Shown here piece after piece: positions 34,030 through 50,579 of a stretch of DNA of 64,000 nucleotides. Each line of letters starts with the position of its first letter. Positions within the stretch are counted from its first letter, which is position 1. Source of the stretch: a virus. The translations under genes were made by a program, and so were the position numbers. Where the stretch lies: the UHGV virus genome UHGV-0132465. One strand, written 5' to 3'. Under the pieces are notes generated by a model. It did no database searches. It was not told the DNA's origin and saw nothing but the letters and a program-made list of their open reading frames with translations.

Positions 34030-34149
34030 ATGAGCACTACACGCCAATACACAAAGGTAACTATTATCGTTTGCGTTGTCGGTTACATCCTGGCGCAAAT
34101 GTTAATGAGTAGCGCTAACAGTTTTGCAAAATTTTTCTTAAATTTTTAA
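34030..34149 (+). CDS. small hydrophobic peptide (39 aa)
   Basis: RBS-preceded ATG; predicted single transmembrane segment; below ORF-track cutoff. Confidence 0.35.
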   Translation: MSTTRQYTKVTIIVCVVGYILAQMLMSSANSFAKFFLNF

Positions 34150-34176
34150 TTGACAAGCTAACTTAGATTGATATAC
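34149..34176 (+). promoter_or_regulatory. sigma70-like promoter (TTGACA-16-TATACT)
   Basis: consensus hexamers upstream of 34229. Confidence 0.55.
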
Positions 34177-34228
34177 TTAAACACGTAAACGGGAAAACTT
34201 CCCAGAACACACAAAAGGAGAAAACATT

Positions 34229-34579
34229 ATGAATACTTCCATCACTATGACCGCCGAAGAAAAAGCCCTGCAGATCGCCGCTCTGAAAAAACAGATTGCA
34301 GAACTTGAAGACAAGATCGACAATTTTGAAATCGACGAAGACAAATACGACGATAAATATGATGAATGGCTAGACGAAATCTATGGCGAAATTATGATCG
34401 GTTGTATCTCTTTTCTTCCGTCGCATATCCTCAAAGAGCTAGATCCTATCGCTTACCGCTGTGGCTTTAGTGATTATATTGATAGCCTAGATATTGAAGA
34501 TGACGAAGACTATCAGGAATTGCAAGCGGAGCTTGAAGAAGTGAAAGAAGAGCTTGCAGAACTGGAAGAAAACGAGTAA
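34229..34579 (+). CDS. acidic hypothetical protein (116 aa)
   Basis: ORF with AAGGAGAAAA RBS; Asp/Glu-rich. Confidence 0.5.
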   Translation: MNTSITMTAEEKALQIAALKKQIAELEDKIDNFEIDEDKYDDKYDEWLDEIYGEIMIGCISFLPSHILKELDPIAYRCGFSDYIDSLDIEDDEDYQELQAELEEVKEELAELEENE

Positions 34580-34581
34580 GC

Positions 34582-34626
34582 TTATTTTTAGATGGCCTTG
34601 ATTCCAGGGCCATCAATAAAGTAAAC
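34582..34626 (+). repeat. 45-bp conserved intergenic element, copy 2
   Basis: near-identical to 33952-33996. Confidence 0.7.
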
Positions 34627-34668
34627 TTTACACTGTTAACACTGAACTAATACAGAGGAGTTAAAACC

Positions 34669-34914
34669 ATGGCCGCACTAATTACCAAATATTATGCCCC
34701 TACCAACACCAAAAGCGCCCGTATCATGGTAAAAGGCTTCGGACGTAAAAAGGTTTACACCTGGGATTATTCCCTAGACATGGAAGACAACTACACCAAC
34801 GCAATGACCGATTTTATTAATGATCTGAATAAACAGATCTTGACCGACTACAAAGTGACCGATATTGCCTACGTCGGGGAAGGCGGGATCTGTTTTGTAG
34901 GCATTGTGAAATAG
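34669..34914 (+). CDS. hypothetical protein (81 aa)
   Basis: ORF with GAGGAG RBS. Confidence 0.5.
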   Translation: MAALITKYYAPTNTKSARIMVKGFGRKKVYTWDYSLDMEDNYTNAMTDFINDLNKQILTDYKVTDIAYVGEGGICFVGIVK

Positions 34915-34989
34915 TTATTTTTTCGGTGGTCCTGGCTGCAGGGCCATCTATAAAGATAATTTATTAACACCATGAAAGGAGAAAGTAAC

Positions 34990-35343
34990 ATGATCAGCGG
35001 TGCAAGTTTTATCATTGGCGCTATTGCTACGGCTTTAATTGTAAACAAGATCCAATCCAAAAACGAAAAAGAGAGCAACGCCTTTACAGAATACCCATTT
35101 TGGGTATTCAACGACAACGAAGACTATATAATCAAGTACAAGGATGAGAAGGGCGACCAGGTAACACCACGACCGATCCCGGCTTACAAGATGCAAGAAA
35201 CACTATACCGCCTAAAGGCTGGAGGCGCAAAAATCGTAGACTTTTGGGGATATGATTGCAAGGATCAGGAGGTTATAAAACGGCGTATCCGTGCGATTCA
35301 GGCAAATATTGAAATCAGTAAAGGGGGAAGTTATGAAAATTAA
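34990..35343 (+). CDS. hypothetical membrane protein (about 117 aa)
   Basis: start at ATG after AAAGGAG; N-terminal hydrophobic segment. Confidence 0.5.
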   Translation: MISGASFIIGAIATALIVNKIQSKNEKESNAFTEYPFWVFNDNEDYIIKYKDEKGDQVTPRPIPAYKMQETLYRLKAGGAKIVDFWGYDCKDQEVIKRRIRAIQANIEISKGGSYEN

Positions 35344-35530
35344 TTTCGAAAAAATTGTAAAGCGCCCTCATGATTCCGAAGAGTTGCCGAAACGCCGCCA
35401 GCGTAACAATAAACTGAATAAGCCAAAAAGGTTTGGGAAGATCTGGCGGAATCACTATGATCGCAAATTACCGGGCCTGCTTTTGGAACGTGAACGACAG
35501 GCAGAACGATACCGCCATAAAGACAAATAA
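35333..35530 (+). CDS. small basic protein (65 aa)
   Basis: ATG after AAGGGGGAAG RBS; Arg/Lys-rich. Confidence 0.45.
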   Translation: MKINFEKIVKRPHDSEELPKRRQRNNKLNKPKRFGKIWRNHYDRKLPGLLLERERQAERYRHKDK

Positions 35531-35538
35531 CAACCAAC

Positions 35539-35566
35539 GCCCCGCCATTGTGCGGGGCTTTTTATT
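35539..35566 (+). terminator. intrinsic terminator (GCCCCGC-CATTGT-GCGGGGC + T-run)
   Basis: 7-bp GC stem followed by TTTTTA. Confidence 0.65.
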
Positions 35567-35711
35567 TCTATCCCGCCGATAGCGCCCCTGGTTGGCCCCA
35601 CAAGCCCCCTAAAAGCCCCTACCTATGCAATCCCCTTTCTTAACCTGAAAACAGCGCCCAGGGCCGTTTTATGGCGTTAAAAATATTATTGACAGTGATT
35701 TTATTTAAAGC

Positions 35712-35739
35712 TTGACATCTTAAACAGGTTAGATATACT
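35712..35739 (+). promoter_or_regulatory. sigma70-like promoter (TTGACA-16-TATACT)
   Basis: consensus hexamers upstream of 35772. Confidence 0.55.
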
Positions 35740-35771
35740 AACCACATCAAAGAGAGAAAGGAGTAAACGCC

Positions 35772-36032
35772 ATGCGTAAATTAAAAAATTTTGATAAGGT
35801 TGATGTTGTCCTGAATAATTTTTACTACTGCAACAACAAGGCCATTTGGTGGCGTGATAGTTCCACCGATAAAGTCAAGGCGCGCTTTCTCCAGGGGCAC
35901 TGGCAAGGCCGCCCAGTGATTAAAATCATGGGGCAATTGGCAGCGTTTAAAAATTGCCGCCGTGTTGATGACGTTGAAGAGATTTTAAACATTTTGCGCC
36001 ACAATAATTTAAAAAATAGCGTTGACAAGTAA
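35772..36032 (+). CDS. hypothetical protein (86 aa)
   Basis: ORF with AAAGGAG RBS. Confidence 0.5.
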   Translation: MRKLKNFDKVDVVLNNFYYCNNKAIWWRDSSTDKVKARFLQGHWQGRPVIKIMGQLAAFKNCRRVDDVEEILNILRHNNLKNSVDK

Positions 36033-36049
36033 ATCTAGATAAGTATACT
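36022..36049 (+). promoter_or_regulatory. sigma70-like promoter (TTGACA-16-TATACT)
   Basis: consensus hexamers upstream of 36107. Confidence 0.55.
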
Positions 36050-36059
36050 TAAACACACA

Positions 36060-36078
36060 GGCGGGAAAACTTCCCGCC
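36060..36078 (+). promoter_or_regulatory. 5'-UTR stem-loop GGCGGGAAAACTTCCCGCC
   Basis: perfect 7-bp GC stem about 10 nt after the -10 element; paralogous to 33507. Confidence 0.6.
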
Positions 36079-36106
36079 ACTAACAAAGAAAATAGGAGAA
36101 AATATC

Positions 36107-36730
36107 ATGACCACCGTTAACATTACCACAGGTTACAATTTATCTTTCGACGTGCTGACCGATGAACAAAAAGAAAAAGCTATTGAAATGGTCCGCGAAA
36201 GAGAAGAACACAGCGGGGATAACTTTTTTGCAGAAAGTGTAATTGAAGACTATAAAGAATATATCTTTCCAGAGTATGGCCTTGAAGATACCAAGGTACA
36301 TTGGTCCGGCTTTTGGTGCCAGGGTGACGGCGCGTCAATCAGTGCGGAAAACGTGGATTTAGAAAAATTCTTGCGTAAAGTCAAGTCTCTGACTAAATTC
36401 CGCTCAATTCGTCACTTGTTCGGCACAATGCACGATGGCGAGCTATCCGCAAGTGTTGAGCGTGATCCATATAGCCGCTATAGTCACGAAAACACTGTAA
36501 GCGGGTACATCGATACTACATGGCTAGACCTGACAGCCAAGCAAGAAAGTAAGGTTGAAGAGCTGGAAGAGTTGATCACCGAGACGGTGCGGGAGCTATC
36601 CCGCAAGGTTTACGTAGACCTGGAGCAAGCTTATCTTGAACAATTTACTACCGAAAACCTGATCGGCCTTATCGAGGCCAATGATTGGCGGTTTGATGTG
36701 GATGAATATGGCGAGATGACTTTTTCATAA
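36107..36730 (+). CDS. hypothetical protein (207 aa)
   Basis: ORF with AGGAGAAAA RBS. Confidence 0.55.
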   Translation: MTTVNITTGYNLSFDVLTDEQKEKAIEMVREREEHSGDNFFAESVIEDYKEYIFPEYGLEDTKVHWSGFWCQGDGASISAENVDLEKFLRKVKSLTKFRSIRHLFGTMHDGELSASVERDPYSRYSHENTVSGYIDTTWLDLTAKQESKVEELEELITETVRELSRKVYVDLEQAYLEQFTTENLIGLIEANDWRFDVDEYGEMTFS

Positions 36731-36818
36731 ATAAAGTGTTGCAATAACCTAAAAACCTGCTATATTAAAACTCAAGGGGCAAGACGTTTGCCCCACACAA
36801 AACAAAGAGGAAAACATT

Positions 36819-37199
36819 ATGAAAAGCACCACTAAAGCCATTGACACCGTTATGTTTAACCTGGTTACCTTTCGTGAGGATATGAAAGATCTTCCACGTG
36901 AAACAGTGTGCGATCACATCGAAAACTATCGCAAACTGATCAAACAACTGCCTTTAAAACGTGACCAATATGCGGCTAACGCTATGCTTAACGCCATGAT
37001 CAAAAAGATGATCCAGTGTGATTTAACTCTGGCCTATGATTATGCAGGCGGTCGTTTTGCAGTATACAATCAGCCCGTGCCCGGTATGAGCACCACTGAA
37101 GAATTGCACGCGTTAAATCTAAAACAAGATGTATGGGATAGCATGCCCCGCGTGGTGGTGTGGGCAGAAAGCGGAAAGATTTACGGCGATAATTTTTAA
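36819..37199 (+). CDS. hypothetical protein (126 aa)
   Basis: ORF with AAGAGGAAAA RBS; upstream UTR hairpin GGGGCAAGACGTTTGCCCC. Confidence 0.5.
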   Translation: MKSTTKAIDTVMFNLVTFREDMKDLPRETVCDHIENYRKLIKQLPLKRDQYAANAMLNAMIKKMIQCDLTLAYDYAGGRFAVYNQPVPGMSTTEELHALNLKQDVWDSMPRVVVWAESGKIYGDNF

Positions 37200-37266
37200 T
37201 CAGGTAACAGGCGGCGGCATATTTGCCGCCTTATTGTTAAGCAGAATTGTAAGAGAGGTACACAGA

Positions 37267-37638
37267 ATGGAATTTATTATTTTGGCTGTATTAGTTGCCT
37301 TGTTCAACGCCTGGATAGCTGGCAAAACAGGTAGATCCGCTTTTCTATGGTTTGTTATATCTATTTTCCTGGGAGTGGTTGCAACCATTGTATTAGTTAT
37401 CCTTGCAATTGTTGACAAGGATAATAATAAGAAAGGTAAAGTATTTTCCGACCTGTATGACGCTCAAACTTTTGTTAACGCCTATTATAGTGATCTTCCG
37501 GTCTCCTTGCGCTGCAGCCTAGCGCAACAAGTTTTCGATGAAGCTAAAACCAGAGAACAGGCCCATGAAATATGTCTAACCGAGGCAGATCGCCTATTCG
37601 AGAGGAATAGAAAATATGTGGACCAGCCGTTTAAATAA
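37267..37638 (+). CDS. hypothetical membrane protein (123 aa)
   Basis: start at ATG after GAGAGG; two predicted transmembrane segments. Confidence 0.5.
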   Translation: MEFIILAVLVALFNAWIAGKTGRSAFLWFVISIFLGVVATIVLVILAIVDKDNNKKGKVFSDLYDAQTFVNAYYSDLPVSLRCSLAQQVFDEAKTREQAHEICLTEADRLFERNRKYVDQPFK

Positions 37639-38113
37639 TGCCACGTTAATTAATCCCTTTAGTGAAGATTTGAAGCCAGCGGCCTGGCGTGAGGGATTCA
37701 ACACAGAAAGATTTATTTTCAGGCCTGACCTTGAGGAATTTTATAACAATGGATCGAACAACGACAGAGATAATTTTTCTTGTAATGTGCGTGGTGATAA
37801 TACTCCTGGGGGCCATTACAAACCACGTCACTGCTAACAGGAGGAAAGGGGGAGACGATGACAACCAAGGATAAGCCCCGCACCGATAAGGTGCGCCGTG
37901 TTATGGTATGGCTTGAGATCATCGCCCTTGAAATATTGTTAGGCGTAGGGATGTACTTTATCGCTGTAAGTAACTGATAACGGCCCCCAATCCCTGGGGG
38001 CTTAACTTTTTCAAAAATTTTTCTTCTAGGGTGTTGCAATCCGGTCCGGAATATGGATAATAACAATCAACGGGGAGCAATCCCCACCACAAAGACTAGA
38101 AAGGAGAAACAAA

Positions 38114-38314
38114 ATGAGTAACAATATCCGCGTTATTAACTTCAAAAAAGAAGAAAAAATTGCCGTGCTGATTGACGGTCAAGAAATCTTTAAAGGTGAT
38201 TATGAAGATCATCAAACGGCGATTAGTATCACTCGCGTGATTGGTTACCATAATTTTTACCCTCAAGGCGCTGAGGCAGCAGTAAAACGAATTAAAGAGA
38301 TTGTAGGCCTGTAA
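38114..38314 (+). CDS. hypothetical protein (66 aa)
   Basis: ORF with AAAGGAGAAA RBS; upstream UTR hairpin GGGGAGCAATCCCC. Confidence 0.5.
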   Translation: MSNNIRVINFKKEEKIAVLIDGQEIFKGDYEDHQTAISITRVIGYHNFYPQGAEAAVKRIKEIVGL

Positions 38315-38317
38315 AAT

Positions 38318-38361
38318 TTATTTTTAGATGGCCTTGATTCCAGGGCCATCAATAAAGTAAA
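38318..38361 (+). repeat. 45-bp conserved intergenic element, copy 3
   Basis: near-identical to 33952-33996. Confidence 0.7.
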
Positions 38362-38399
38362 TTTAAACCCTGTTAAAATAATCAGTGCAAAAAGGAGTA

Positions 38400-38717
38400 A
38401 TGATCATGTTTATCCAGGCTAATAATCTTTATTTCTTTGATGGTCAGATCGTAGACGGCGTGGAGGTGGAAATCACTGGGTGCCCTGGCGGTCAGGTTAT
38501 GACTTTTCGGAATAATGCCTTTGATGATTCTCATATCGTTATGAGAATGGAAGTTAGTAAGCTGGATGATAAGAAAACATTGATTGACTATTCCGTCAAA
38601 GATCATCCAGACTACCACATGATCTATGGTGATTTGTGCATTGTTGACCGTGACAAGGTGAACGGCATTGTTATAGCCATTGTGAACGATGTTTTCTCTG
38701 AGTATTCCGGCAAATGA
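38400..38717 (+). CDS. hypothetical protein (about 105 aa)
   Basis: ATG after AAAGGAG; exact start (38400 or 38406) uncertain. Confidence 0.5.
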   Translation: MIMFIQANNLYFFDGQIVDGVEVEITGCPGGQVMTFRNNAFDDSHIVMRMEVSKLDDKKTLIDYSVKDHPDYHMIYGDLCIVDRDKVNGIVIAIVNDVFSEYSGK

Positions 38718-38928
38718 TGCAAAATAAGGCCCCTGGCAGGGCCTGCAGCGATATAATCACATAAAGGCTATGCGGTTGCATGGCCTTTATTATTTTAGCG
38801 TTACAGCTGCCCCCAAGGCGCTTAAAAAATTTTTAAAGAAGTACTTGCATCAAGCCCCACAATATGGATAATAAGAGTTGTCGAGGGGGCTATGCCTCCA
38901 ATCATTAACAGAAACAGGAGTTAAAACT

Positions 38929-39213: not shown

Positions 39214-39268
39214 ACCTGGCGGGGCCGAAAAGGCCCCCAATTATGAAAATAAAGATAGGTTAATCATC

Positions 39269-39845: not shown

Positions 39846-40091
39846 ATGAAAAGCAATAAAGGTTATAACGGTCACAAAAACAAAACTCATTGGAATGTAA
39901 GCCTTTGGATTAATAACGATGAATCATTATACTTATACGCTGTAGGCTTAATAAATGAGTGCGGCAATAAAGATAAAGCGGCGGATCTAATGTGCTACAG
40001 ATTAAAACAGGACGGAATCACTCATACACCTGATGGTTTCAAGTATAGTAAAACTGCAATCCGTGCCGCTATGGTAGGAATGAAACACTAA
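39846..40091 (+). CDS. hypothetical protein (81 aa)
   Basis: ORF with AGAGG RBS; upstream UTR hairpin. Confidence 0.5.
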   Translation: MKSNKGYNGHKNKTHWNVSLWINNDESLYLYAVGLINECGNKDKAADLMCYRLKQDGITHTPDGFKYSKTAIRAAMVGMKH

Positions 40092-40165
40092 AAGCACATA
40101 GCCGCCTTACCCTGGGGCTGTGGTAGCGGCCCCATGAATAAGGTTACTAACAAAGAATAGAAAAC

Positions 40166-40270
40166 ATGAAACAGAAATTAATTGATGCGGTAATCCTGGT
40201 TATTGCCCTGGGTATTGGCCTGATTGCAACCATGGCTAATATGATCTTGTCTTCCAACGGTATCGGATAA
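40166..40270 (+). CDS. small hydrophobic peptide (34 aa)
   Basis: RBS-like purine tract; predicted single transmembrane helix. Confidence 0.3.
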   Translation: MKQKLIDAVILVIALGIGLIATMANMILSSNGIG

Positions 40271-40279
40271 GGTGGGCAA

Positions 40280-40495
40280 ATGATCACCAACAAAACAGGC
40301 AAAACAGAATTTTTACGCAACTTGCAGATCGGCAAGCCCGAGATCTGGTATTGCACTAAAACACCACGTGACGAAATGAAAGACTTCACCGCCACGCTGC
40401 AACGGGTAAAGATATCTATCACGCAGAAAAAAGCCTTGATAGTGGTTGAAGGTGAGATCCCTCAAGCCGTTGTTATAATTGAGCGTACAGCATAG
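40280..40495 (+). CDS. hypothetical protein (71 aa)
   Basis: ATG after AAGGTGGG RBS. Confidence 0.45.
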   Translation: MITNKTGKTEFLRNLQIGKPEIWYCTKTPRDEMKDFTATLQRVKISITQKKALIVVEGEIPQAVVIIERTA

Positions 40496-40586
40496 TTTAA
40501 TTTATACAGATACCCGAAAATTAACCAACAAAGCATAAACAGGCGGTTACCGCCGCCTTAAACGTAGCAGAAAGAGGATAGACAAC

Positions 40587-40871
40587 ATGAAAAAGATGAT
40601 CGCAGTGGTTGCCCTGGTTGTTGGACTTAATGCGCCTGTAATGGCTAAAGAGCTGGCAAAAGAGGTTGATCTAACGGATATCCATGCCGTCAATCAAATC
40701 GGGGTTACTTATCGCTTATGCCTTGCCGCTAAAACTTTTAATGACGGTACAACAGAGTACTACGGATTCGAGGGTATCCGGTGCGGTGAGCTTGCTCGCG
40801 ACCTTAAGGAAGATCCAGACCTGGAGGATCTGCCCATCACCGTAAACGGTAAAGCTTACGTAAACCGTTAA
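40587..40871 (+). CDS. secreted hypothetical protein (94 aa)
   Basis: signal-peptide-like N terminus MKKMIAVVALVVGLNAPVMA; AGAGGA RBS. Confidence 0.5.
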   Translation: MKKMIAVVALVVGLNAPVMAKELAKEVDLTDIHAVNQIGVTYRLCLAAKTFNDGTTEYYGFEGIRCGELARDLKEDPDLEDLPITVNGKAYVNR

Positions 40872-40873
40872 CC

Positions 40874-41008
40874 ATGAGAAAGATGATCATCACCTTGGGG
40901 ATTGTGGCGGGATTGCTGGCGCTCTTTCCCCTTATGGTTAGGTATGTGCTGATCAGTGTTGTCCTGGTAGTCAGCGATCTAATGTTATATATTAACTCAT
41001 TGTTTTAG
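40874..41008 (+). CDS. small hydrophobic peptide (44 aa)
   Basis: immediately follows upstream stop; two hydrophobic stretches. Confidence 0.3.
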   Translation: MRKMIITLGIVAGLLALFPLMVRYVLISVVLVVSDLMLYINSLF

Positions 41009-41016
41009 GTGGAATA

Positions 41017-41208
41017 ATGACAGCAGAAGAAGTTAAAAAAGTACTGGCAGTACTACGTTACCATAATCATTGTAAGGTGAAGAATGATCCTGATTATCTC
41101 GATTCATCCCTTGAAGAGGATACACTACAAGCCATAAGTAACATGCAAGAATTGCTAAAGCGCATGACAGAGAAAAACCGACCGGACTACATAGGCGAAA
41201 AAATATAA
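41017..41208 (+). CDS. hypothetical protein (63 aa)
   Basis: ATG after AGGTGGAA RBS. Confidence 0.45.
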   Translation: MTAEEVKKVLAVLRYHNHCKVKNDPDYLDSSLEEDTLQAISNMQELLKRMTEKNRPDYIGEKI

Positions 41209-41419
41209 TCCTTATTGACTAGAAAACAGGGCTTGCAATGGTCCTGTTTTTTGTTATACTTATTCCACGGCAGGCACCTGGCGACGGGGGGAGACAATCA
41301 CCGGGCCTGCCTGTCATATAAGAACTATAAAAACCGTTGACATCTGCCAGGGGGTGGGGTAACATTTATCTTGAAGGGGCAAAAGTGCCCACACAACAAC
41401 CAGAAGAGAGGAAAACATT

Positions 41420-41692
41420 ATGTCAAGCTGGATTAATCAAGAAGTCGAATCACGTTTTAATGCTATCTGGGATCTCGTAGAAAAAGAGGACGGAACATCA
41501 AGCCCCTACCTCAACAATTTGGAATTCCATTTTGTGGAAGCGATGAACGCAGAACATGATCACGAAGGTGGCGCGGATGAGTTCGCTAAAGGTTATGGCT
41601 TTAACAATGCCAACGAAATGATCGAGTCGGTTGTACTCCAAGCCGAGGAAGATTATCAATTAAAAACGCTTGAATTCTGCCGCCGCAAGTAA
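41420..41692 (+). CDS. hypothetical protein (90 aa)
   Basis: own TTGACA promoter, UTR hairpin GGGGCAAAAGTGCCC, AGAGAGG RBS. Confidence 0.5.
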   Translation: MSSWINQEVESRFNAIWDLVEKEDGTSSPYLNNLEFHFVEAMNAEHDHEGGADEFAKGYGFNNANEMIESVVLQAEEDYQLKTLEFCRRK

Positions 41693-41752
41693 TAAGATAA
41701 TGACAAGGGCCGAAAGGCCCACTAATCAGAACCGCACAAAGAGGAAAACATC

Positions 41753-42016
41753 ATGAAACGTCTTGATCAGCTCAAATTAGTTCAATATATGGCTTATCGT
41801 GTTCTTGAAGTACAGAAAGGCAGCAAAAAAGAAGTTTGCGAGAAAGCGTACAAGATCTTTACTCGCAAAAAAGACGATTGGATGTTACGCCAGACTAAAA
41901 AGGCTGACATCTTGGGGTACCTGGAAGAAGAGATCCGGCTTGAAGAACAAGAAGAGATCCGCCGTAGTGAGGCAGATTATCAGGCAGCTTGGGAAAACTG
42001 GATGAGCAACAAATAA
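41753..42016 (+). CDS. hypothetical protein (87 aa)
   Basis: UTR hairpin GGGCCGAAAGGCCC then AGAGGAAAA RBS. Confidence 0.5.
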   Translation: MKRLDQLKLVQYMAYRVLEVQKGSKKEVCEKAYKIFTRKKDDWMLRQTKKADILGYLEEEIRLEEQEEIRRSEADYQAAWENWMSNK

Positions 42017-42158
42017 TACAACAAGTTACATGGTCAGGGGCAATAAAGCCCCTTGATCACACAAAAATTATGCTATCCTTGTTGACAGAGATCGGCAGTT
42101 TTGCTATATTCTTTTTGAAGGGCAGTTGTAAGAAAATTAACTAAGAGGTAAAAACACC

Positions 42159-42578
42159 ATGAACATTAAATCTGATAATCCGGCATATAGCTTTGATAAC
42201 GCTTTTTGTCACGGTCCGGCGGCGAAAGGATTCGAAATCGATGGTAAACTAATTATTGTCAATGTTGACGGGGAAGAGGTTGCAGTATATCCGGTGGCAG
42301 ACGTTAAAAGCCGTCTACAATGCCGCATCGATGTTACCGCCTACCAGCTTGATCCGGTCCGGGTAGTTGCCCTGGTCCTGGAAGAAGAAATTAAAGCAAT
42401 GCACCACAGCAACAAGTTTATTGGTGACGCTCAAGATAATATGCAGGTATGCCGCTATAAAGTTAATGAAGTGCTTAAAGAGTACGGCTATAAGGATTTA
42501 ATGATCAAGCGTGATGAAAAATTCCGCTACCGTAACGACCTGGCAAATCGGATTTTTGAAATATACGAATCATTATAA
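42159..42578 (+). CDS. hypothetical protein (139 aa)
   Basis: ORF with AGAGG RBS; last gene of plus-strand array. Confidence 0.5.
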   Translation: MNIKSDNPAYSFDNAFCHGPAAKGFEIDGKLIIVNVDGEEVAVYPVADVKSRLQCRIDVTAYQLDPVRVVALVLEEEIKAMHHSNKFIGDAQDNMQVCRYKVNEVLKEYGYKDLMIKRDEKFRYRNDLANRIFEIYESL

Positions 42579-42596
42579 TTTCTTAACTGAATTATC

Positions 42597-42623
42597 AAGG
42601 GGCTTAAAGGCCCCTTTCTTTTT
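42597..42623 (+). terminator. intrinsic terminator (AAGGGGC-TTAAA-GGCCCCTT + TCTTTTT)
   Basis: GC hairpin and T-run after last plus-strand gene. Confidence 0.7.
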
Positions 42624-43208
42624 GTCTGCTCTTCTCCTACCATAAACGGCCCTACCTGGCAAGTGGAATAATTGACTAGCCATCAATCCCACACACTGTA
42701 TAAATATACATGGAAAATAACTATTGCATAATTTTTCATTGTGTGGTAGCAAGGCCATTTTTACCCGTTTTCTCTCCCAAAATTGCACGTAATGCCGCTA
42801 TTGCACAAAATTTAACCTGATGCACATCTTCAACATCTTGTCAATAACTAAAAATCTTTATAAGTCATACACTTACACAACCATAAAGCCGTGTTCTACG
42901 TGAAAAATCGAGTATAACTATAGCCGCCAGATCTCAGAATTTACGTACGTTCACCATTCTATAGCCTGCAAAGTATTTATTCCAACCACAGAATAACGGA
43001 ATAGTCAATACCTGCATAAAATAATTATTCGTGTAAACTGCATAACATAAATCAGCTCAGGTGTCAACATTTTTCGTAAGCAGTTCGAAATTGTCACGAT
43101 AAGTTATTATACACAAAGAAATCTTTAGTCGTCTAATGGTTACTATACATTACTAATCTGACTGGAATCATTAGATGACTAAGAGAAAGATAAGAAATAA
43201 TTAATAAT

Positions 43209-43518
43209 GTAATTGTTTTACCTGTAACAATAAGGCAACTATGCAAACGAATGGCATGGCGCGACGGAGTCGCGACATAATATAAAAGCAGTAACCATCA
43301 CCCCCGTGATAGTTTTTCTGCAATCTATTACTCAGATCATAGTTGCCTTGTATTTAGTTAATCATGACATAACAAGCAAGGCAACTATAGATCTTCTAAT
43401 AGTTGCCCTGCTTTTATATTATGTCATAGAAACGCCCGAAGGGGTGACCTAGTCACCTGGCATAGCCAGCGAAAGATTATTATCTTGTTAATTGTTTTCA
43501 TGCAAACGAATGTCATGG
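43209..43518. repeat. cluster of palindromes and iteron-like repeats (AAGGCAACTAT / ATAGTTGCC x4; GCAAACGAATGNCATGGC x2; GGTGAC-cta-GTCACC)
   Basis: multiple direct and inverted copies within 300 bp of an ORF-poor region between convergent gene blocks. Confidence 0.6.
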
Positions 43519-44268
43519 CTTATCATCTATGCGTGAACTATCCAGGCGTAAACAGTCTATGCGGGAACAATCTATACGGGAACAGTGAGGCATGCAATAG
43601 TAACAACTGTTATTGTATCCGGTGTGTTGAGTATGCCCGGTGTGTCACTATTATGTCACATTATGTCAGACAAGTTTTTCTCCTCTTTGTCAAGTGCTGC
43701 ATGAAAAATTTACAAACTGGTATGGTAGCATTTTTGCGGCCCTGTTTACATTCAGAAATGTATGTATAATCCTTGGTGTGTGGGCGTTTAGACGTCTGGA
43801 CGGTCAGAAGTCCGCAGGTCAATATCTAATCTATTGGTTGCTAACTATATCCCACACAAATAGTAAGAAATATAATTGTTATGTGCGTAAACAGTAACCC
43901 ATGTTATCAATCCCTGTATGTATCGCCAGTGGTGCGCATAATGGGTATTATGTTAAATTGCCCGTAATGATAACTATTCTCACAATGATAGGTATTCTCA
44001 TTCATCCCCACAAGATAGATTGCAAATGTTGTGCCACTGTGTGAACGGCCTGGTCTATTAATTTGCCTCACTGCCTCGATATTTGAGAATTATTATAAAA
44101 ATGAGAAGTATTCCCATTCCGTCCGCCTGGCAGCACTCCTGTAGGACAAGCACAAAATCGGGGCATAACTGACCTGTTCAGATATTTCTGGCTGACTCTT
44201 CAGGTCTGTGTGGGAAAAGCCAACCTCTCCGGCGGCGGGGTAGGGGTCAATTAAAAAATTTATGCGGT

Positions 44269-44325
44269 GTATGAAACCCTCTTCAGGCAAGGTGTGTATT
44301 ATGGTATGAAACCCTCTTCAGGCAA
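44269..44325. repeat. exact 22-bp direct repeat GTATGAAACCCTCTTCAGGCAA x2, 35 bp apart
   Basis: perfect duplication; flanked by related G-rich motifs at 44226-44250 and 44371-44396. Confidence 0.7.
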
Positions 44326-45084
44326 TGATATTTGTGGGTGTGATATTTGCTGGAAAGCCAGATATGACGGGACTCCCGGCGGGGCAGGGGTAGTACAGAC
44401 AGGGAAAATGTGGGGATGTAGTTGGGGAAATTGATCAGACAGGTAGAGTATGGAATATGTTATGAATATGTTAAATATGGAGGGTGAATATCTGTAGGAT
44501 TTGTGTGTAAAATCAAAGACTTAAGTGGTGTTGTGGTATTTTCTATAAATAATTCAAGTTTAATAGGTAATATTTGTCTCTATCCACTTTGTGTGGTAAA
44601 CAGATTTAGATGAAATTGGTTTACAAGTGTATACATAATATACAAATTAAAGATACAAGAAACCCCCCTCCCCCTTCGGCTACCATTCACCTTTTCCTCT
44701 GACTGGTACTTAAACACTTATTCAGACTCTTCAGGTTATCACCCATATACTATATGGCAGTGACTGGTGTCCTCCGGCCCCTCTTTCGTCACCCGTCCGC
44801 TTCGCCAAGCTAATGCCATAGCCAAATGTTCGGTTGTTCACCCTGTTCACTCAGGTGTATCTCCATACCCCTTCAAACCGAAGAGAACAGAAAACCCGAA
44901 TTACTCGGTAAAAGAAAAGAGAAGAACTTAATTTTATCAAGATAGGCAAGAATGTCAAGGGATGACTGCTCACTAAACAAGCAAACAGTCATGTGTGGTA
45001 GGTAAGTGATTGTAGTGGTGGAAAATTTAGTTGAAAGATGTGTTATAGTGCTCCCAGCACTTTAGCCGGGCAGCTAATTGTGTG

Positions 45085-45300: not shown

Positions 45301-45419
45301 GAAATCTCCTCTGGAAATGAGAGTGTGAACAGGGTTATACGTTCCAATATGATGGAATTATGCACGTTTGCCTCTTCAGGCCATGCTTTAGCATGATAAA
45401 CTTATGTGGGCTCGGTGCT

Positions 45420-45632
45420 TCATAGTCTCCCACCTCTGAACTCTTCGTGCTCAGGCATAATAGAGAACCAGATATCTACGATGTCTTCCCACGTTAGGTC
45501 ATCAGCCTCAGGATCTACCTGGAGCGAAGATGGAGAATCTTCAGAATCGAAGTTTTCCTCTTTCACTGGCTCAGCCAAGGGACATATGGTCACTCCTTTG
45601 GATGTCTCTTCAGATGCATGTGTGTTGATCAT
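45420..45632 (-). CDS. acidic hypothetical protein (70 aa)
   Basis: ORF in co-oriented block. Confidence 0.4.
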   Translation of the reverse strand: MINTHASEETSKGVTICPLAEPVKEENFDSEDSPSSLQVDPEADDLTWEDIVDIWFSIMPEHEEFRGGRL

Positions 45633-45939
45633 GTTCCACCCGTGAGTATTCCGGCAACAGCTGCTATGGACGTGATGATCATCAGGATCACCACTAAAAC
45701 CTCTGACAATGTTTTCATTGTGTATTCCATATTATCCAAACAATGTGTGGATATTATCACAGGAGCGGTAATGTGTCAACAGAAGCGCCGCGAGGGTTTG
45801 GTTAAAATCCGAGCGTATGGTGATTTGGGTCAAAACGGACGTGCGTTCTCGCTACGCTCGAAATAGAGAGTTGTTTACAGGCCGTCCTTAAACGCTCTGT
45901 AATAAGATTATCCATCTAAGGTATGCAATCGTGCACCAG

Positions 45940-45968
45940 ATAAAGAAAAGGACGCCACAGAGCGTCCT
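45940..45968 (-). terminator. intrinsic terminator on minus strand (AGGACGC stem + U-run)
   Basis: 7-bp inverted repeat followed on the minus strand by TTTTCTTTAT, just downstream of gene 45993-46304. Confidence 0.55.
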
Positions 45969-45992
45969 AGGTGCCTTAAATTTGATATTTTG

Positions 45993-46304
45993 CTATACCC
46001 ATGAGGGCTTGTCCAGGTTGGAGTAACTGAAAGGGGTCAAAAGGTGACTGTCAAAATCTTTCAAACTGTCCAGATCTTTTTCCTCGTCCTGACACCATCT
46101 GTGTCTACATTTATTGTTGTAGTGCATGGAATGCATAGCGTTCTGCAACTTAATAGGCACAAGTGATTCAGGAGTAGATAGAATTGTTGGGTATGCCAGG
46201 ACTATCTCAAACAATGGAAACACATCGAAACTGAAGTCTATTTCTGCTGAGGTTGCTGGCATATAGGAGTATTTAGCTGTCGTTGTAGACATAATCCACC
46301 TCAC
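45993..46304 (-). CDS. hypothetical protein (103 aa)
   Basis: ORF in co-oriented compact block. Confidence 0.5.
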   Translation of the reverse strand: MRWIMSTTTAKYSYMPATSAEIDFSFDVFPLFEIVLAYPTILSTPESLVPIKLQNAMHSMHYNNKCRHRWCQDEEKDLDSLKDFDSHLLTPFSYSNLDKPSWV

Positions 46305-46633
46305 ACAGGCTTGATAATACCTTCACCGAATAACTCTTTATATTTAATCTTATCAGGATCCCACTCCTGGATAATTTCGAAGACAATATCCAGCCCGGGG
46401 ATAATCACTTCTCCAGTATCAAGTCTGGCAAGAACAAAACCGGAAGGTTGAATGGTTTCCCAGTTACGGCGATCAGAATAGAATACTTCGAAAATATCAC
46501 CAACCTCAATCCGTTTCTGTTGCTCAAGATGATCCAGGTTCTCTTTCATGCGGATGCAGCGTATTTTACGTGCAGGCCACAGGCCACCTGCATCACGTTC
46601 ATTTAGCTCTTTTACAGTAATCGGCATTAACAT
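46301..46633 (-). CDS. hypothetical protein (110 aa)
   Basis: ORF, 4-nt overlap with downstream gene. Confidence 0.5.
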   Translation of the reverse strand: MLMPITVKELNERDAGGLWPARKIRCIRMKENLDHLEQQKRIEVGDIFEVFYSDRRNWETIQPSGFVLARLDTGEVIIPGLDIVFEIIQEWDPDKIKYKELFGEGIIKPV

Positions 46634-46652
46634 CTCTGATCTCCTTCATAGG

Positions 46653-46682
46653 TAGTAAAAAGAGGGGCTTTGAGCCCCTCTT
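46653..46682 (-). terminator. intrinsic terminator on minus strand (AGAGGGGC-TTTGA-GCCCCTCT)
   Basis: 8-bp GC stem followed on the minus strand by T-run. Confidence 0.65.
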
Positions 46683-46687
46683 TGTCA

Positions 46688-46993
46688 TTATTCTACAGAG
46701 CGTTTGAACAGAATGTCTGCTTCAGACATGTGCTCAACCTCCTCTTCGATTTTAGCTCGACGTTTTTCAGCTTCGTAGCGGATATCGAACTCGGTAGCCA
46801 CCAATGACTTGATAAACTTAGGAGAATACAAGTGATCCTGTTTCTCGACAAGAATAATATCCTTGATAGCGTCTTTCAGATCTTTAATCTGAAGCTGAAG
46901 TTCCACCAGCTCTTCAATTGTTTTACGGAGGCGATCACGCTCTGCAATGTCAGAAGGAAGAGAGGTGAACAGTTCAACTTTAGATTTAGCCAT
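46688..46993 (-). CDS. hypothetical coiled-coil-like protein (101 aa)
   Basis: ORF; heptad-like charged sequence. Confidence 0.5.
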   Translation of the reverse strand: MAKSKVELFTSLPSDIAERDRLRKTIEELVELQLQIKDLKDAIKDIILVEKQDHLYSPKFIKSLVATEFDIRYEAEKRRAKIEEEVEHMSEADILFKRSVE

Positions 46994-47021
46994 AGTAAGA
47001 GTCTCCTTATATTGTTTTAAA

Positions 47022-47273
47022 TTAGCGTTCTACAAAAATACCGTTCAGTTCGATAACCAGGAATTTCTGGTCTTCACTATCGTCACGTGCCAGCACCTCA
47101 CAGACGTAACGGTCATCTCCGTCATCATCGCAGTCAAATACAAGGCTGAGGACTTTATCATGATAAACCTTCGCCACTACCGCCTCGTAAGTGTTGCCGA
47201 TTGTGAATCCAAGATAGTCCCCGATGCATTTGACAACAACATGGTCGCCAGCATTTAAGTCAATCTTCGCCAT
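47022..47273 (-). CDS. hypothetical protein (83 aa)
   Basis: start moved to ATG after AAGGAG RBS. Confidence 0.5.
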   Translation of the reverse strand: MAKIDLNAGDHVVVKCIGDYLGFTIGNTYEAVVAKVYHDKVLSLVFDCDDDGDDRYVCEVLARDDSEDQKFLVIELNGIFVER

Positions 47274-47400
47274 TACTGTGCTCCTTGGGTGATAATATGG
47301 TATGTAAAACTTTAACCAGAGATGTGAATAACGCCCCAAAACACACAGATAGCGCTAAAACGGATAAGGCCATCATTAAAGCTTCAGTAAAATCAGTCAT
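47260..47400 (-). CDS. small hydrophobic protein (46 aa)
   Basis: ATG after AAGAGGTGAGGA RBS; hydrophobic core; below ORF-track cutoff. Confidence 0.35.
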   Translation of the reverse strand: MTDFTEALMMALSVLALSVCFGALFTSLVKVLHTILSPKEHSNGED

Positions 47401-47428
47401 TCCTCACCTCTTGTTAGTAACTATACTA

Positions 47429-47692
47429 TCATTTATCTTTGCCGTCAAGAACTTTTTTAAATCTCTCAGGAATATCTCCTGTTCTTAGATAGTTCATGAC
47501 CTCACAAGGTTCCCACTTAAACTTCTTACACAGCAGGGCGGCTGAGATTGTCTCATTGCGAAAAGAAAGGATATCAATATCCCACTCTGAGAACCCTAAT
47601 TTCCGAAGAGTGGCTATAGAAATCCTCACAGCAACCCAACAAGAGAGGCACGCAACAAACGCTACTGCTACAACCCACACCAAGATGTTCAT
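47429..47692 (-). CDS. hypothetical membrane protein (87 aa)
   Basis: N-terminal hydrophobic segment. Confidence 0.5.
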   Translation of the reverse strand: MNILVWVVAVAFVACLSCWVAVRISIATLRKLGFSEWDIDILSFRNETISAALLCKKFKWEPCEVMNYLRTGDIPERFKKVLDGKDK

Positions 47693-47781
47693 ACAGCCCC
47701 CTTAATGAAATACAAGACATAGTGCCAAGGTCACTATCCCGCAAATAATTAACAGTGTCGTTGCAACCTTGGCAAGATTTA

Positions 47782-48069
47782 TCATAGCGTCTCTAAAATT
47801 TCATACCCTTCGGGTCGGAAAACAAGCCACTCAGGTGCTCCATTTGGTCGATACGCTTTATACAGAACAACCTGATCTCGGCACATACACATTGCTACAT
47901 AGTTTTCATCCACACCTGCAGCCTGCATTGCATCTTCTTCTCCGGCAACCGCTTTGCTTACAACTTCCTTGGTAGGCAGGTGGGCGATCAGCTCGTCACC
48001 ATCGTTAATTCCAAAATGGCTGAGTTCTCCATTGGTGTCTTTAATCTTGATCTTAACCAAATCTTTCAT
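47782..48069 (-). CDS. small acidic protein (95 aa), MK-family-like
   Basis: ORF in compact block; ends YEILETL. Confidence 0.5.
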   Translation of the reverse strand: MKDLVKIKIKDTNGELSHFGINDGDELIAHLPTKEVVSKAVAGEEDAMQAAGVDENYVAMCMCRDQVVLYKAYRPNGAPEWLVFRPEGYEILETL

Positions 48070-48398
48070 TAGTCTTCCCCCAAGTTCAAAGGTCCTAAGA
48101 TCTCATATGCCAGATTAGAAGTTACCAGAGGATCTTCTGCATCTTTAGTATTATACCACCCGTGAATAACCAGAGTCCCACTTTGCTTCATGTCTAACTG
48201 GAACTGTTCTGCCGTTTCCTCATCCATCTCCAAGATCTCCATGAGGTATTTGATGTTAGGAAGGTATGCAGCTGTTACAGTCCCCTCTACTAGGCCTTCA
48301 GGCCAACCTACATCCGGATGACAAGTAGGGACCAGAGAGGTCAGCTTGATAGTGTATGCTTTTTCTGCACGAGCCTTCAGTAACGGATCAATTTTCAT
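48069..48398 (-). CDS. small acidic protein (109 aa)
   Basis: ORF abutting neighbours. Confidence 0.5.
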   Translation of the reverse strand: MKIDPLLKARAEKAYTIKLTSLVPTCHPDVGWPEGLVEGTVTAAYLPNIKYLMEILEMDEETAEQFQLDMKQSGTLVIHGWYNTKDAEDPLVTSNLAYEILGPLNLGED

Positions 48399-48748
48399 TA
48401 TTCTTCCTCCTCTTCGGTGCCTGCTTCCAGTAGTAAGTTAAGAACATCTTCAGCAGAAGGTTCGTAGAACTCTTGGCCTTCGTTGTCGATGATACGATAG
48501 TCATCACCACGAATAATCAGAGGATCGTTATCAAAACCTTCAAGACCTTTAACAACGACAACACGGTCGATTGCCATCATTGTAAGAACTTTATCAACAT
48601 CTTCCTCTGCCACACCATACTGCAGCAGGATGTCTTTGGTAGGAGGAACAGCATCAACCACAACACCGTTACCAAAACCTTCCGGAAGTTTAGCTAAAAT
48701 ATCTTCCGGAACCGCATTCATATCAAAACCTGTGATCTCTACTTTCAT
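48398..48748 (-). CDS. small acidic protein (116 aa)
   Basis: ORF abutting neighbours; poly-Glu C terminus. Confidence 0.5.
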   Translation of the reverse strand: MKVEITGFDMNAVPEDILAKLPEGFGNGVVVDAVPPTKDILLQYGVAEEDVDKVLTMMAIDRVVVVKGLEGFDNDPLIIRGDDYRIIDNEGQEFYEPSAEDVLNLLLEAGTEEEEE

Positions 48749-49009
48749 TTACAGCACCTCTTCGTCAACTACTTCATAAAAATGGCTTGGGATTGCAATG
48801 GCGTTCTCGCCTTCACCTAAGAACACTGTCCCACTAACGATTAACATTAGAAGAACGTCTGCGATACCTTCCTCGGGTACGTTGCCAAAACCTTTAATCA
48901 GCTCGTAGGTTGGAAGATTTACCTCTAAGATGTCACCATCCTTAGAACGGAAATCAACACCGTCCTGAATCTCTGCCGTTTCAAGGTTTTTCAATTTAAT
49001 CTTCATCAA
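48749..49009 (-). CDS. small acidic protein (86 aa), MKIK family
   Basis: MMKIKLKNLE start, EVVDEEVL end as in paralogues. Confidence 0.5.
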   Translation of the reverse strand: MMKIKLKNLETAEIQDGVDFRSKDGDILEVNLPTYELIKGFGNVPEEGIADVLLMLIVSGTVFLGEGENAIAIPSHFYEVVDEEVL

Positions 49010-49085
49010 TCAGTCTCCTGTCTTGTTAAGATGGAGGTATTATTGCACACAGGGTTGGTGTTGTCAACACCTGTGTGGCATAAAA

Positions 49086-49481
49086 TTACTGAAATAGTGC
49101 AGATAAATTACCTTCTGGTGGGAACTTATCTGCCAGGAATGGGGTTAGAACAGTGGCCTTCTGAATATCAGGGGTCCACTCATTGTTCAGAACATCCCAG
49201 TAGTACGCAATGTTACTGTGTGGGTGCCGCATTACGAACTTTTTCCCTTCGTAGTCAGTTGAAACCTCTACAGAAGAAATAACAACAGAGTCTTCAAGGG
49301 TTTCTTCATAGAAAGATCCACCCTCAAATTTCCAACGAGATGCAAGAGCTCCTGCCTTGAACGCTGCAGATAACGGACTGTCTGCAAGAACATACATTTC
49401 TTGCACTCTGTCACTGCGATCTTTGCTTCTTACATTGTATACAGTATCCGAGCTATACTCAACACGGTATAGACTTACCAT
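49086..49481 (-). CDS. hypothetical protein (131 aa), paralogue of 51288-51686
   Basis: shared FV(M/I)(R/V)HP.S...(Y/H)YW(D/N)....(E/K)WTP motif. Confidence 0.55.
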   Translation of the reverse strand: MVSLYRVEYSSDTVYNVRSKDRSDRVQEMYVLADSPLSAAFKAGALASRWKFEGGSFYEETLEDSVVISSVEVSTDYEGKKFVMRHPHSNIAYYWDVLNNEWTPDIQKATVLTPFLADKFPPEGNLSALFQ

Positions 49482-49813
49482 TACCTAACCTCCTCAATAA
49501 CTTCCACATCTGAACCCACCACAAATGCAAAAGGGCAGGTTTCATGAAAGATATCCGGATCTCCACCAAGCTTGCTAACTATCTCTCCACCACTAATAAA
49601 CACAAGCTCACCAATATTCATCAGATTGCTAAAATAGTAGCCATAATGATTGAAGAATGCAGCTGGGTCAGGTAGACTGGTGGCCTCAAGCTCTACATTG
49701 CTTGAGATCACTTTCTTATCATACCCTCTCGCCTTTTGAGATGCAAGATCTGCAGAGTCTTCAGGAGACCGGAGATGCACAGGAATTGTTTCACCAATAA
49801 AGCGTACTTTCAT
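49481..49813 (-). CDS. small acidic protein (about 110 aa), MKV family
   Basis: start moved to MKVRFIGE after GGGGTGAG RBS; ends EVIEEVR. Confidence 0.5.
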   Translation of the reverse strand: MKVRFIGETIPVHLRSPEDSADLASQKARGYDKKVISSNVELEATSLPDPAAFFNHYGYYFSNLMNIGELVFISGGEIVSKLGGDPDIFHETCPFAFVVGSDVEVIEEVR

Positions 49814-49817
49814 ATTC

Positions 49818-50081
49818 TCACCCCACAATCATAGCTTCAAAAGGTGTCATAAACGAATAAACAGCATCATCATCTGCTTCAGGGAATGCCCCCAAAGACT
49901 TTATGTCTGATCCCTTGACAAATACAAGGTTTTGATCAAAAGCTTCTTGGGGATCAATCCGATACATATCTCGTAGGATATTGCTTACCTCCTCATCAAG
50001 AGGTGAGTATGCTGTGCACGTTTTTCCAATCAAGCTTTGAGAATCAGGGTATCCACCTGAAGTTTTAAAATAAACAATCAT
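49818..50081 (-). CDS. hypothetical protein (87 aa)
   Basis: ORF in compact block. Confidence 0.45.
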   Translation of the reverse strand: MIVYFKTSGGYPDSQSLIGKTCTAYSPLDEEVSNILRDMYRIDPQEAFDQNLVFVKGSDIKSLGAFPEADDDAVYSFMTPFEAMIVG

Positions 50082-50172
50082 ATAGTATCACCTCTGGCAA
50101 GAGATGGGGATTCCTTTCCCACAAATAATTACAAACCTTCCTTATCGAGGAAGCATGCTAATCCAAGCAGGA

Positions 50173-50442
50173 TTATTCCTCTACAATCTCATACACATCA
50201 GGAGTTACAATCAACTCTTCTCCGTTACCCGGTGCAACAAACACCACCAAGCCTTCAGGTGTGTGCTTTTTAGCCATCTCGATAACATCTTCTCGCAGAG
50301 CTGGCTCCATCAGATCAAAGCCTTCACCCAGGGCATCACGAACCACCTTCATATAGTCCACTGGTTGTGCTTCAACAATCATGCCTTCAACCAGTCCACA
50401 GTTTTTGTCTGCCAGCTCAGTTTTGAATAATTTAATTTTCAT
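50173..50442 (-). CDS. small acidic protein (89 aa), MKIK family
   Basis: MKIKLFKTEL start, YEIVEE end. Confidence 0.5.
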   Translation of the reverse strand: MKIKLFKTELADKNCGLVEGMIVEAQPVDYMKVVRDALGEGFDLMEPALREDVIEMAKKHTPEGLVVFVAPGNGEELIVTPDVYEIVEE

Positions 50443-50468
50443 TTAGAGGTCTCCTCAATTATTTGATA

Positions 50469-50570
50469 TTAATAGCCGTAACCTAACACATTAACTACAA
50501 CTACGATTGCAAACATAATTTCAAAGCATGCAATCTCTACATTTGGGACTAATTTCTTAATCATACCCAT
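50469..50570 (-). CDS. small hydrophobic peptide (33 aa)
   Basis: ATG after GGAGAATGAGGTG RBS; single hydrophobic helix. Confidence 0.3.
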   Translation of the reverse strand: MGMIKKLVPNVEIACFEIMFAIVVVVNVLGYGY

Positions 50571-50579
50571 TGTAGCACC

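Follow-up and report, generated by a model that had tools for sequence, protein, structure and literature searches.

Conserved micro-genes for predicted single-helix membrane peptides in the small-gene blocks of an rV5-like coliphage

Do the very short, hydrophobic open reading frames (ORFs) that lie between the longer genes of a large virus genome encode peptides, and what could such peptides do? The question is raised by a 64,000-nucleotide (nt) stretch of the virus genome UHGV-0132465, hereafter the window, for which a preliminary description had listed five ORFs of 33-46 amino acids (aa) as unannotated membrane peptides with good ribosome-binding sites. Judged by its sequence, the source of the window is an rV5-like coliphage of the genus Vequintavirus with ~92% nucleotide identity to rV5. 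An 18-kb query across the small-ORF region matched 299 phage records; in 54 of these the match covered 80% or more of the query, with a nucleotide identity of 92-94%, and all near-full matches were rV5-like Vequintavirus coliphages, some of which are filed as 'UNVERIFIED Campylobacter phage' with the same taxonomy. Here, we aligned every candidate to the homologous region in 14 additional genomes of Vequintavirus and in four pieces of Phapecoctavirus. At least seven ORFs, named A, H, B and C on the plus strand and G, D and E on the minus strand (Table 1), are conserved micro-genes under in-frame purifying selection, with E less certain than the others.

When A, B, C, D, E, G and H are pooled, the variable sites number 56, 33 and 86 at the first, second and third codon positions, respectively (chi-square p=5.5e-6). 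The 45 longer genes have 591, 366 and 1985, and a control of 32 ORFs of at least 25 aa, taken from the adjacent 2.5 kb of non-coding DNA, has 233, 232 and 225 (p=0.92). The median ratio of nonsynonymous to synonymous variation (pN/pS) is 0.27 for the micro-ORFs (range 0.09-0.50), compared with 0.76 in the non-coding control set (Mann-Whitney p=2e-4); it ranks the micro-ORFs from G, which has the strongest constraint of the set, through A, H, B, D and E to C. Conservation of the reading frame in related phages, which the preliminary description had named beforehand as a check, was found for A, B, C, D and H, whose length is identical in each of the 11-16 relatives. A, H, B, C, D, E and G each match a PHROG profile over the whole profile and the whole peptide (E 5e-21 to 2e-34), and all of these profiles are of 'unknown function'. 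Furthermore, TMHMM and Phobius calls of one transmembrane domain (TMD) have been published for the rV5 orthologs (PMC3606486). The kept frame, the third-position bias, the low pN/pS, the PHROG families and the published calls together argue that the micro-ORFs are genuine, translated single-helix genes.

Table 1 Short ORFs of the window, with the Shine-Dalgarno (SD) sequence and its pairing energy, conservation and predicted topology (TM, transmembrane).
ORF	Position	Strand	Description	SD (kcal/mol)	Relatives with same length	Variable sites by codon position	pN/pS	PHROG E	Phage records (tblastn)	Predicted topology
A	34030..34149	+	39-aa single-TM peptide; ortholog of rV5 gp193; phrog_16391	AAAGGGGG, -10.7	14/14	9, 1, 15	0.20	4e-31	113 (full-length)	N-in (N-flank +2)
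H	37858..37977	+	39-aa peptide; ortholog of rV5 gp181; phrog_13629	AGGAGGAAAGGGGGAG, -10.7	15/15	6, 3, 10	0.22	4e-32	119	N-in (N-tail +4)
B	40166..40270	+	34-aa single-TM peptide; ortholog of rV5 gp173; phrog_14631	none (-0.9)	11/11		0.27	5e-23	72 (allele of the window)	N-in (+2)
C	40874..41008	+	44-aa hydrophobic peptide; ortholog of rV5 gp170; phrog_16005	none (+0.5)	16/16		0.50		95	N-in (+2)
G	45629..45718	-	29-aa single-TM peptide; phrog_34195		13/14	0, 3, 12	0.09	5e-21		
D	47260..47400	-	46-aa peptide; ortholog of rV5 gp156; phrog_16755	AAGAGGTGAGGA, -10.1	15/15		0.28			N-out/C-in
E	50469..50570	-	33-aa peptide; ortholog of rV5 gp145; phrog_15151	TGAGGTG, -9.2		5, 3, 2	0.46	2e-24	118	N-in (+2)
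I	47702..47785	-	candidate 27-aa TM peptide; start overlaps upstream stop (ATGA)	none (-2.9)	15/15 (intact)		0.51	no match	118 (full-length)	
F	31566..31673	+	35-aa ORF, doubtful as a stable gene	TAAGGAGG, -11.9	1/11			no match		
J41	37749-37874	+	41-aa ORF MDRTTTEIIFLVMCVVIILLGAITNHVTANRRKGGDDDNQG; inside annotated ORF 37616-37837				0.64			

The preliminary description had placed its five ORFs precisely, and A, B, C, D and E (39, 34, 44, 46 and 33 aa) do have their start and stop codons exactly at those positions. As it had proposed, each fills a gap, of 137-279 nt, between longer ORFs of the coding strand, and each has a 19-residue window with a mean Kyte-Doolittle hydropathy of 2.0-2.6, in agreement with a single hydrophobic helix. 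It had overlooked H and the 27-aa candidate I. Its claim of good ribosome-binding sites stands for A, D and E but not for B and C, when SD strength is expressed as the energy of the pairing duplex in kcal/mol; for reference, 44 longer genes have a median of -8.05, and a value of -9 is reached at only 1.7% of random positions. SD-preceded hydrophobic short ORFs far exceed chance. In the 20.7-kb region, five ORFs of 27-59 aa have both an SD of -7 kcal/mol or lower and a KD17 hydropathy of at least 2.3, and in 60 dinucleotide-preserving shuffles of this region the mean number of such ORFs was 0.03 and the maximum was one.

Could some of these frames be open without being genes? E, I and F might lie in conserved regulatory RNA or DNA, such as a promoter, a 5' leader or a spacer between coupled genes, whose frames happen to be open and are hydrophobic through T-richness. 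About 6 of the 32 ORFs in truly non-coding DNA are likewise open in all relatives, F is variable in length, and I has a high pN/pS, no SD and no PHROG match. E lies in a 97%-identical stretch with 10 substitutions, so that its pN/pS is uninformative and the coding test is without power. Moreover, the -10 hexamer of a promoter-like site near E, TTGACT-16-TACAAT (50469-50596 region), overlaps its start codon, and the start reads ATA instead of ATG in 2 of 14 relatives, S127 BCL3 (locus L013), where there is no alternative start, and 'Campylobacter phage D#' (L014). On the other hand, the frame of E is open in all relatives, its strong SD is at the correct spacing, its amino-acid changes are just V/A/I/T/M swaps, and both E and I are full-length without stops in 118 of 118 Vequintavirus records. 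For A, B, C, D, G and H, the non-gene explanation is excluded by the codon-position and pN/pS data, and for the three remaining ORFs we regard it as improbable. E is a probable gene, less certain than the other micro-genes; it may be dispensable, or the gene downstream may use its sequence as a promoter or leader as well. I, which has 88% nucleotide identity in its 15 relatives, is a possible gene on its sequence; unfavourable to it are, in addition to the missing SD, a pN/pS no better than that of another frame (0.34) and a TM core that is variable at 6 of 19 positions. None of the eight annotated relatives examined has it annotated.

Each micro-peptide is predicted to be little more than one TM helix with a short charged flank. 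The 19-residue hydropathy windows across the micro-peptides have values of 2.0-2.95, and the hydrophobic cores vary at 28 of 152 positions compared with 41 of 135 for the flanks (Fisher p=0.019). The least variable cores are those of D (0/19), H (1/19, compared with 7/19 in its flanks) and G (1/19), and D, H, G, E, B and A all have a helix that is better conserved than its flanks; C (13/19) and I are exceptions. Topology was called by positive-inside counting of flank charges. The N-terminal tail of H is basic, with six K/R residues, and its TM helix has two invariant Glu residues (E20 and E25); the helix of E has one Glu (E17). In D, residues 2-34 are invariant and variation is confined to the tail; an acidic N-flank is followed by the TM segment and by a charged C-tail with Lys residues after the helix.

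What could such peptides do? The explanation that we hold to be rather probable is that they are early accessory inner-membrane peptides, which act through helix-helix contacts with a membrane protein of the host or of the phage. They would be made early by host RNA polymerase at sigma-70-type promoters, would insert into the E. coli inner membrane, and would pack their helices sequence-specifically against the host or phage protein. They would thereby modulate a transporter, a protein of the cell envelope or of cell division, a step in superinfection exclusion or a defence sensor, and would not damage the membrane non-specifically. Near-consensus sigma-70-type promoters are scattered through both small-gene blocks (70 sites where 46 are expected, seven of them matching at 11 of 12 positions), which suggests early transcription by the host polymerase. 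Specific contacts are suggested by the conservation of the helix, the most conserved part of the peptides, by the conserved polar residues inside it, and by precedents.

AcrZ and MgrB are small membrane regulators of E. coli. In phage T4, the small membrane protein Ac is thought to act on the AcrAB-TolC efflux pump, according to the passage of PMC13250531 that cites it. Like the micro-peptides, these proteins have about 30-50 aa and essentially one TM helix, and they work by packing against a larger membrane protein, as proposed here; D is predicted to share the N-out/C-in layout with a charged cytoplasmic tail. However, the likeness is architectural only. In Pfam and NCBIfam scans, none of the peptides had a significant match, be it to a toxin, holin, Imm or small-regulator family, and none was placed in the AcrZ, MgrB, KdpF-type or T4 Imm/Ac-type families. 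Another precedent is Gp11 of the Staphylococcus phage PhiNM1, which blocks cell division via peptidoglycan synthesis (PMC11237401). Gp11 is early, small and membrane-embedded, and it binds host membrane-associated proteins, which is the action proposed for the rV5-like peptides. It differs in phage and host, and it has no sequence relationship to them.

Several points weigh against this reading. Translation, membrane insertion, early timing and the partner are derived from sequence and analogy and, as no peptide matches a characterised family, the mechanism rests on analogy. The median pN/pS of the micro-ORFs is higher than that of the longer genes (0.27 and 0.11, respectively, p=0.002), so the constraint is modest. 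The substitutions in E are too few for a coding signature, and one relative has lost its start codon without a replacement; B and C are without an SD in this window. Finally, the helix of C is so variable that a generic membrane anchor fits it better than a specific binder.

The preliminary description had likened the ORFs to membrane-targeting toxins or regulators, a suggestion that is plausible. The type I toxins TisB, Hok, Ibs and Ldr are small peptides with a single hydrophobic helix. If they worked like such toxins or like viroporins, the micro-peptides would form oligomers in the inner membrane that dissipate the proton-motive force, for host shutdown or lysis timing. The micro-peptides resemble the type I toxins, among them also Hok/Gef, ShoB and TimP, in size, in the single hydrophobic helix and in the inner-membrane target predicted here; the Glu residues inside the helices of H and E could line a pore, and J41 has a faint match to TimP (E=0.028, 14.7 bits compared with a cut-off of 45). 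We nevertheless think it unlikely that the micro-peptides act in this way. A, B, D, E, G, H and I match no Pfam or NCBIfam toxin family at E<=1. The blocks have sigma-70-type promoters, and the early depolarisation that they would entail would hurt a 137-kb phage that needs host energy. The near-invariant helices of D, H and G exceed the need of a generic pore-former. Furthermore, the micro-genes lie in polycistronic blocks with ordinary SDs or coupling and not, as type I toxins do, at stand-alone loci with an antisense RNA; the general Rfam scan of the whole window was empty, and no search aimed at an antisense RNA partner was made.

Small membrane proteins of a lytic myovirus could also act at the envelope, either in the timing of lysis or in superinfection exclusion, as holins, antiholins, spanins or Imm/Sp-type proteins do. 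The neighbourhood of some micro-genes is consistent with such a role. C is probably coupled to a 94-aa protein that is presumably secreted; three membrane proteins are encoded in a row, namely I, an 87-aa protein whose TM segment is N-terminal (47429-47692), and D; and H follows a 123-aa membrane protein that is labelled 'putative holin' in one record. However, there is no Pfam holin or Imm match, and no lipobox that would indicate an o-spanin. In addition, the rV5 lysin gp89 (71.6 kb) and the putative holin gp129 (94.1 kb) are, by synteny, outside the blocks that hold A to E, the lysin being at least 26 kb from gp145 (PMC3606486). The probability that we give to this explanation is low; superinfection exclusion as such is compatible with the helix-contact explanation and is hardly separable from it by sequence.

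The explanation by helix contacts could be extended, although we consider the extension doubtful. Seven to nine of the peptides might constitute a near genus-specific early 'membrane takeover kit', in which each near-invariant helix would be tuned to a different inner-membrane target, such as a transporter, a component of the divisome or elongasome, or a membrane-bound defence sensor. The helices that contain Glu, in H and E, would then pair with buried basic residues of their targets, and I and J41 would be further members, encoded by genes overlooked by every current annotation.

The micro-genes are distributed over two convergent small-gene blocks. The plus-strand block ends at 42578 and the minus-strand block begins at ~45085, and both converge on a 2.5-kb stretch without conserved ORFs. 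The same layout has been described for rV5, with '88 mainly small ORFs' and no ORFs at 104013-106618 (Kropinski et al. 2013, PMC3606486). The gene-free stretch, 42579-45084, has a pN/pS of ~0.8, a flat codon-position pattern, no tRNA and no Rfam match; no tRNA was found elsewhere in the window. At its right edge (44730-44990), the relatives are 96-99% identical, more than in most genes, and this edge has a near-consensus minus-strand promoter with an extended TG (44958-44931, TTGACA-16-TAAAAT) that is directed into the gene-free stretch. The stretch may be a source of non-coding RNA or an origin region.

In the plus-strand block, A is preceded by the D1 repeat, a 63-nt hairpin element, and followed directly by a near-consensus promoter, TTGACA-16-TATACT. 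The element has four copies, at 33947-34009, 34577-34639, 34911-34973 and 38313-38375, each immediately 3' of a stop codon, and it contains a hairpin, GATGGCC-N10-GGCCATC, and a TTGAYT-N18-TAAACT motif. Two copies are labelled terminators in the Murica record, yet the hairpin is not followed by a T-run. Three of the four copies have a gene start 20-30 nt downstream, and the next start after the copy at 38313 is less certain. H is the last gene of its operon, which also encodes the 123-aa membrane protein, and a terminator-like hairpin follows it at 37982-38002.

B and C belong to a common module at 39865-42554 that links Vequintavirus to Phapecoctavirus. B has a conserved C-terminal motif, ATM(A/S)NMILSS(N/H)GIG, and is preceded by a good SD, GAGGA or AATGAGG, in relatives. 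A second allele of B, ~50% identical in the N-terminal half, is found in the Phapecoctavirus contigs L004 and L005 and in L003 and L011. The N-terminal halves of the two alleles cannot be aligned as DNA, and both alleles keep the 34 codons, the hydrophobic core and the C-terminal motif, Phapecoctavirus included. In Phapecoctavirus, C likewise retains its length and its hydrophobicity. As annotated, rV5 gp173 has a 12-codon N-terminal extension (46 aa), which stop codons close in this window. C starts 2 nt past the stop codon of the 94-aa protein (40587-40871), which has the signal peptide MKKMIAVVALVVGLNAPVMA; this position, together with the missing SD, suggests translational coupling. At 83% nucleotide identity, C has 84 substitutions among its relatives with zero stops or frameshifts, and the replacements are mostly I/V/L/M/A swaps. 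The tentative AlphaFold2 (AF2) prediction, a monomer modelled without a membrane to compare a hairpin with a single helix, is one helix of residues 2-43 with a predicted local distance difference test (pLDDT) score of 94. A word-indexed protein search for C gave five matches, close relatives only, and an exhaustive HMMER search of the C-family profile against 1.84 billion representatives returned just three clusters, which argues that the family is not broad. In Pfam and NCBIfam, C matches DUF7396 (PF24129) and LPAM_1 only, both below cut-off; DUF7396 has 16.6 bits (E=0.009), under the 27-bit gathering threshold, and aligns C positions 3-43 to profile positions 4-44 of 46. The match to phrog_3595 is similarly weak (E=0.06). 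DUF3096, by which one UniRef record names a homolog, gave no match at E<=1 in the Pfam scan.

In the minus-strand block, the preliminary description had suggested a possible further peptide at 45639-45740, which is open on neither strand. The real ORF is 10 bases off, at 45629-45730 on the minus strand, and is likelier to be 45629-45718, that is, G. The in-frame ATG at 45730 would yield 33 aa; it reads ATA in one relative (L008), so that the second Met is the likely start, and the PHROG profile is 29 aa long. The stop codon of G overlaps the start of the next gene (ATGA), and one of the 14 related copies is frameshifted. D overlaps the start of the next gene by 14 nt and starts with ATG or GTG in relatives. 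In a collection of 5.8 billion proteins, D has 11 matches, close relatives that are all of 46 aa and 78-96% identical. E is located between a homolog of a phage ribosome-hibernation factor and the next gene.

The claim that the ORFs are unannotated does not hold for relatives. The rV5 record (GenBank DQ832317) has ORFs 193 (A), 181 (H), 173 (B), 170 (C), 156 (D) and 145 (E), and in Table S3 of the rV5 paper gp193, gp181, gp173, gp170, gp156 and gp145 are listed as 'membrane protein, 1 TMD', with 39, 39, 46, 44, 46 and 33 aa, respectively (Kropinski et al. 2013, PMC3606486). The existence and the membrane character of the five listed ORFs have thus been known since 2013. The ORFs of the window have the same neighbours, strand and length (39/39/34/44/46/33 aa) as these orthologs and 84-97% amino-acid identity to them; they differ in that G and I are unannotated in rV5, where a longer ORF, 162, spans the site of G. 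G is annotated in Murica, MaxTheCat and PMBT16. Among the annotation tables examined (rV5, I29, MaxTheCat, JLBYU08, navn, Murica, PMBT16 and S127), A is omitted in navn and Murica, A, C and E in S127, and C and D in I29; other Vequintavirus records likewise have no gene called beneath the tblastn match. Mass spectrometry of rV5 was made on virions only, and none of these peptides was flagged (PMC3606486). We found nothing usable in the literature on Vequintavirus transcriptomics or ribosome profiling.

The micro-genes are narrow, lineage-restricted accessory families, nearly universal in the ~118 sequenced Vequintavirus genomes. The tblastn searches covered 50,697 phage records (Table 1). The listings for B and E have Vequintavirus-type records only, with 88-97% amino-acid identity for E, and no other genus appears in the counts by organism for A, C, H and I; in the comparison of homologous regions, B and C, and only these, were additionally seen in Phapecoctavirus. 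The relatives were taken from INPHARED records, as an IMG/VR scan anchored on the neighbouring 94-aa protein gave four loci only. About 20 GenBank records, MG0656xx (loci L014-L018), are named 'Campylobacter phage', marked UNVERIFIED and have Campylobacter jejuni as host entry. Their identity to the E. coli Vequintavirus of the window is 92-93%, and they have probably been mislabelled or are contaminant assemblies.

Other short ORFs of the region are of lesser or different standing. F had been suggested as a possible membrane peptide, and it has the best SD of all candidates. However, it has only ~13 hydrophobic residues, relatives change YL to HR and A to P or T, and its length is 31-58 aa across relatives; F was therefore rejected as a membrane helix, and it is doubtful as a stable gene. 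Downstream of F there is a 740-nt ORF-poor stretch (31521-32260) with three 47-nt direct repeats (31823-32008, core GTACTCGATCTGTTTTTCGTTTTC), in which a 30-aa ORF at 32078-32170 has a strong SD and no coding signature (pN/pS 1.2). The 56-aa ORF at 32542-32712 on the plus strand is non-hydrophobic, with an SD of -11.8 kcal/mol and a weak phrog_21957 match (E=1e-6); it has no homologous stretch among the fetched relatives and is probably a real small soluble protein. J41 has the most hydrophobic core of the region (KD17 3.2). Its frame is +1 relative to the 3' half of the annotated 73-aa ORF (rV5 ORF 182, phrog_12060), whose pN/pS is 0.41 in the 5' part and 1.4 in the J41 overlap, and both frames are open in 15 of 16 relatives. 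Beyond the range considered above, a 39-aa single-TM micro-gene at 54464-54583 on the minus strand (SD -9.3 kcal/mol, phrog_15251), probably rV5 gp131 'membrane protein, 1 TMD', extends the class of single-TM micro-genes into the next gene block.

The result is a confirmation and not a discovery, and the micro-genes are assigned no function in any record. Gene callers and cut-offs on length often miss the small membrane peptides of phages. In several Vequintavirus records, A, C, D, E or H has no gene call, and the selection seen here justifies a consistent annotation. The micro-peptides are candidate host-takeover, exclusion or anti-defence factors, and they are easy to test, as the genus is used for O157:H7 biocontrol and is represented in the BASEL collection. 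If the takeover kit were true, Vequintaviruses would be a compact natural library of transmembrane-helix inhibitors.

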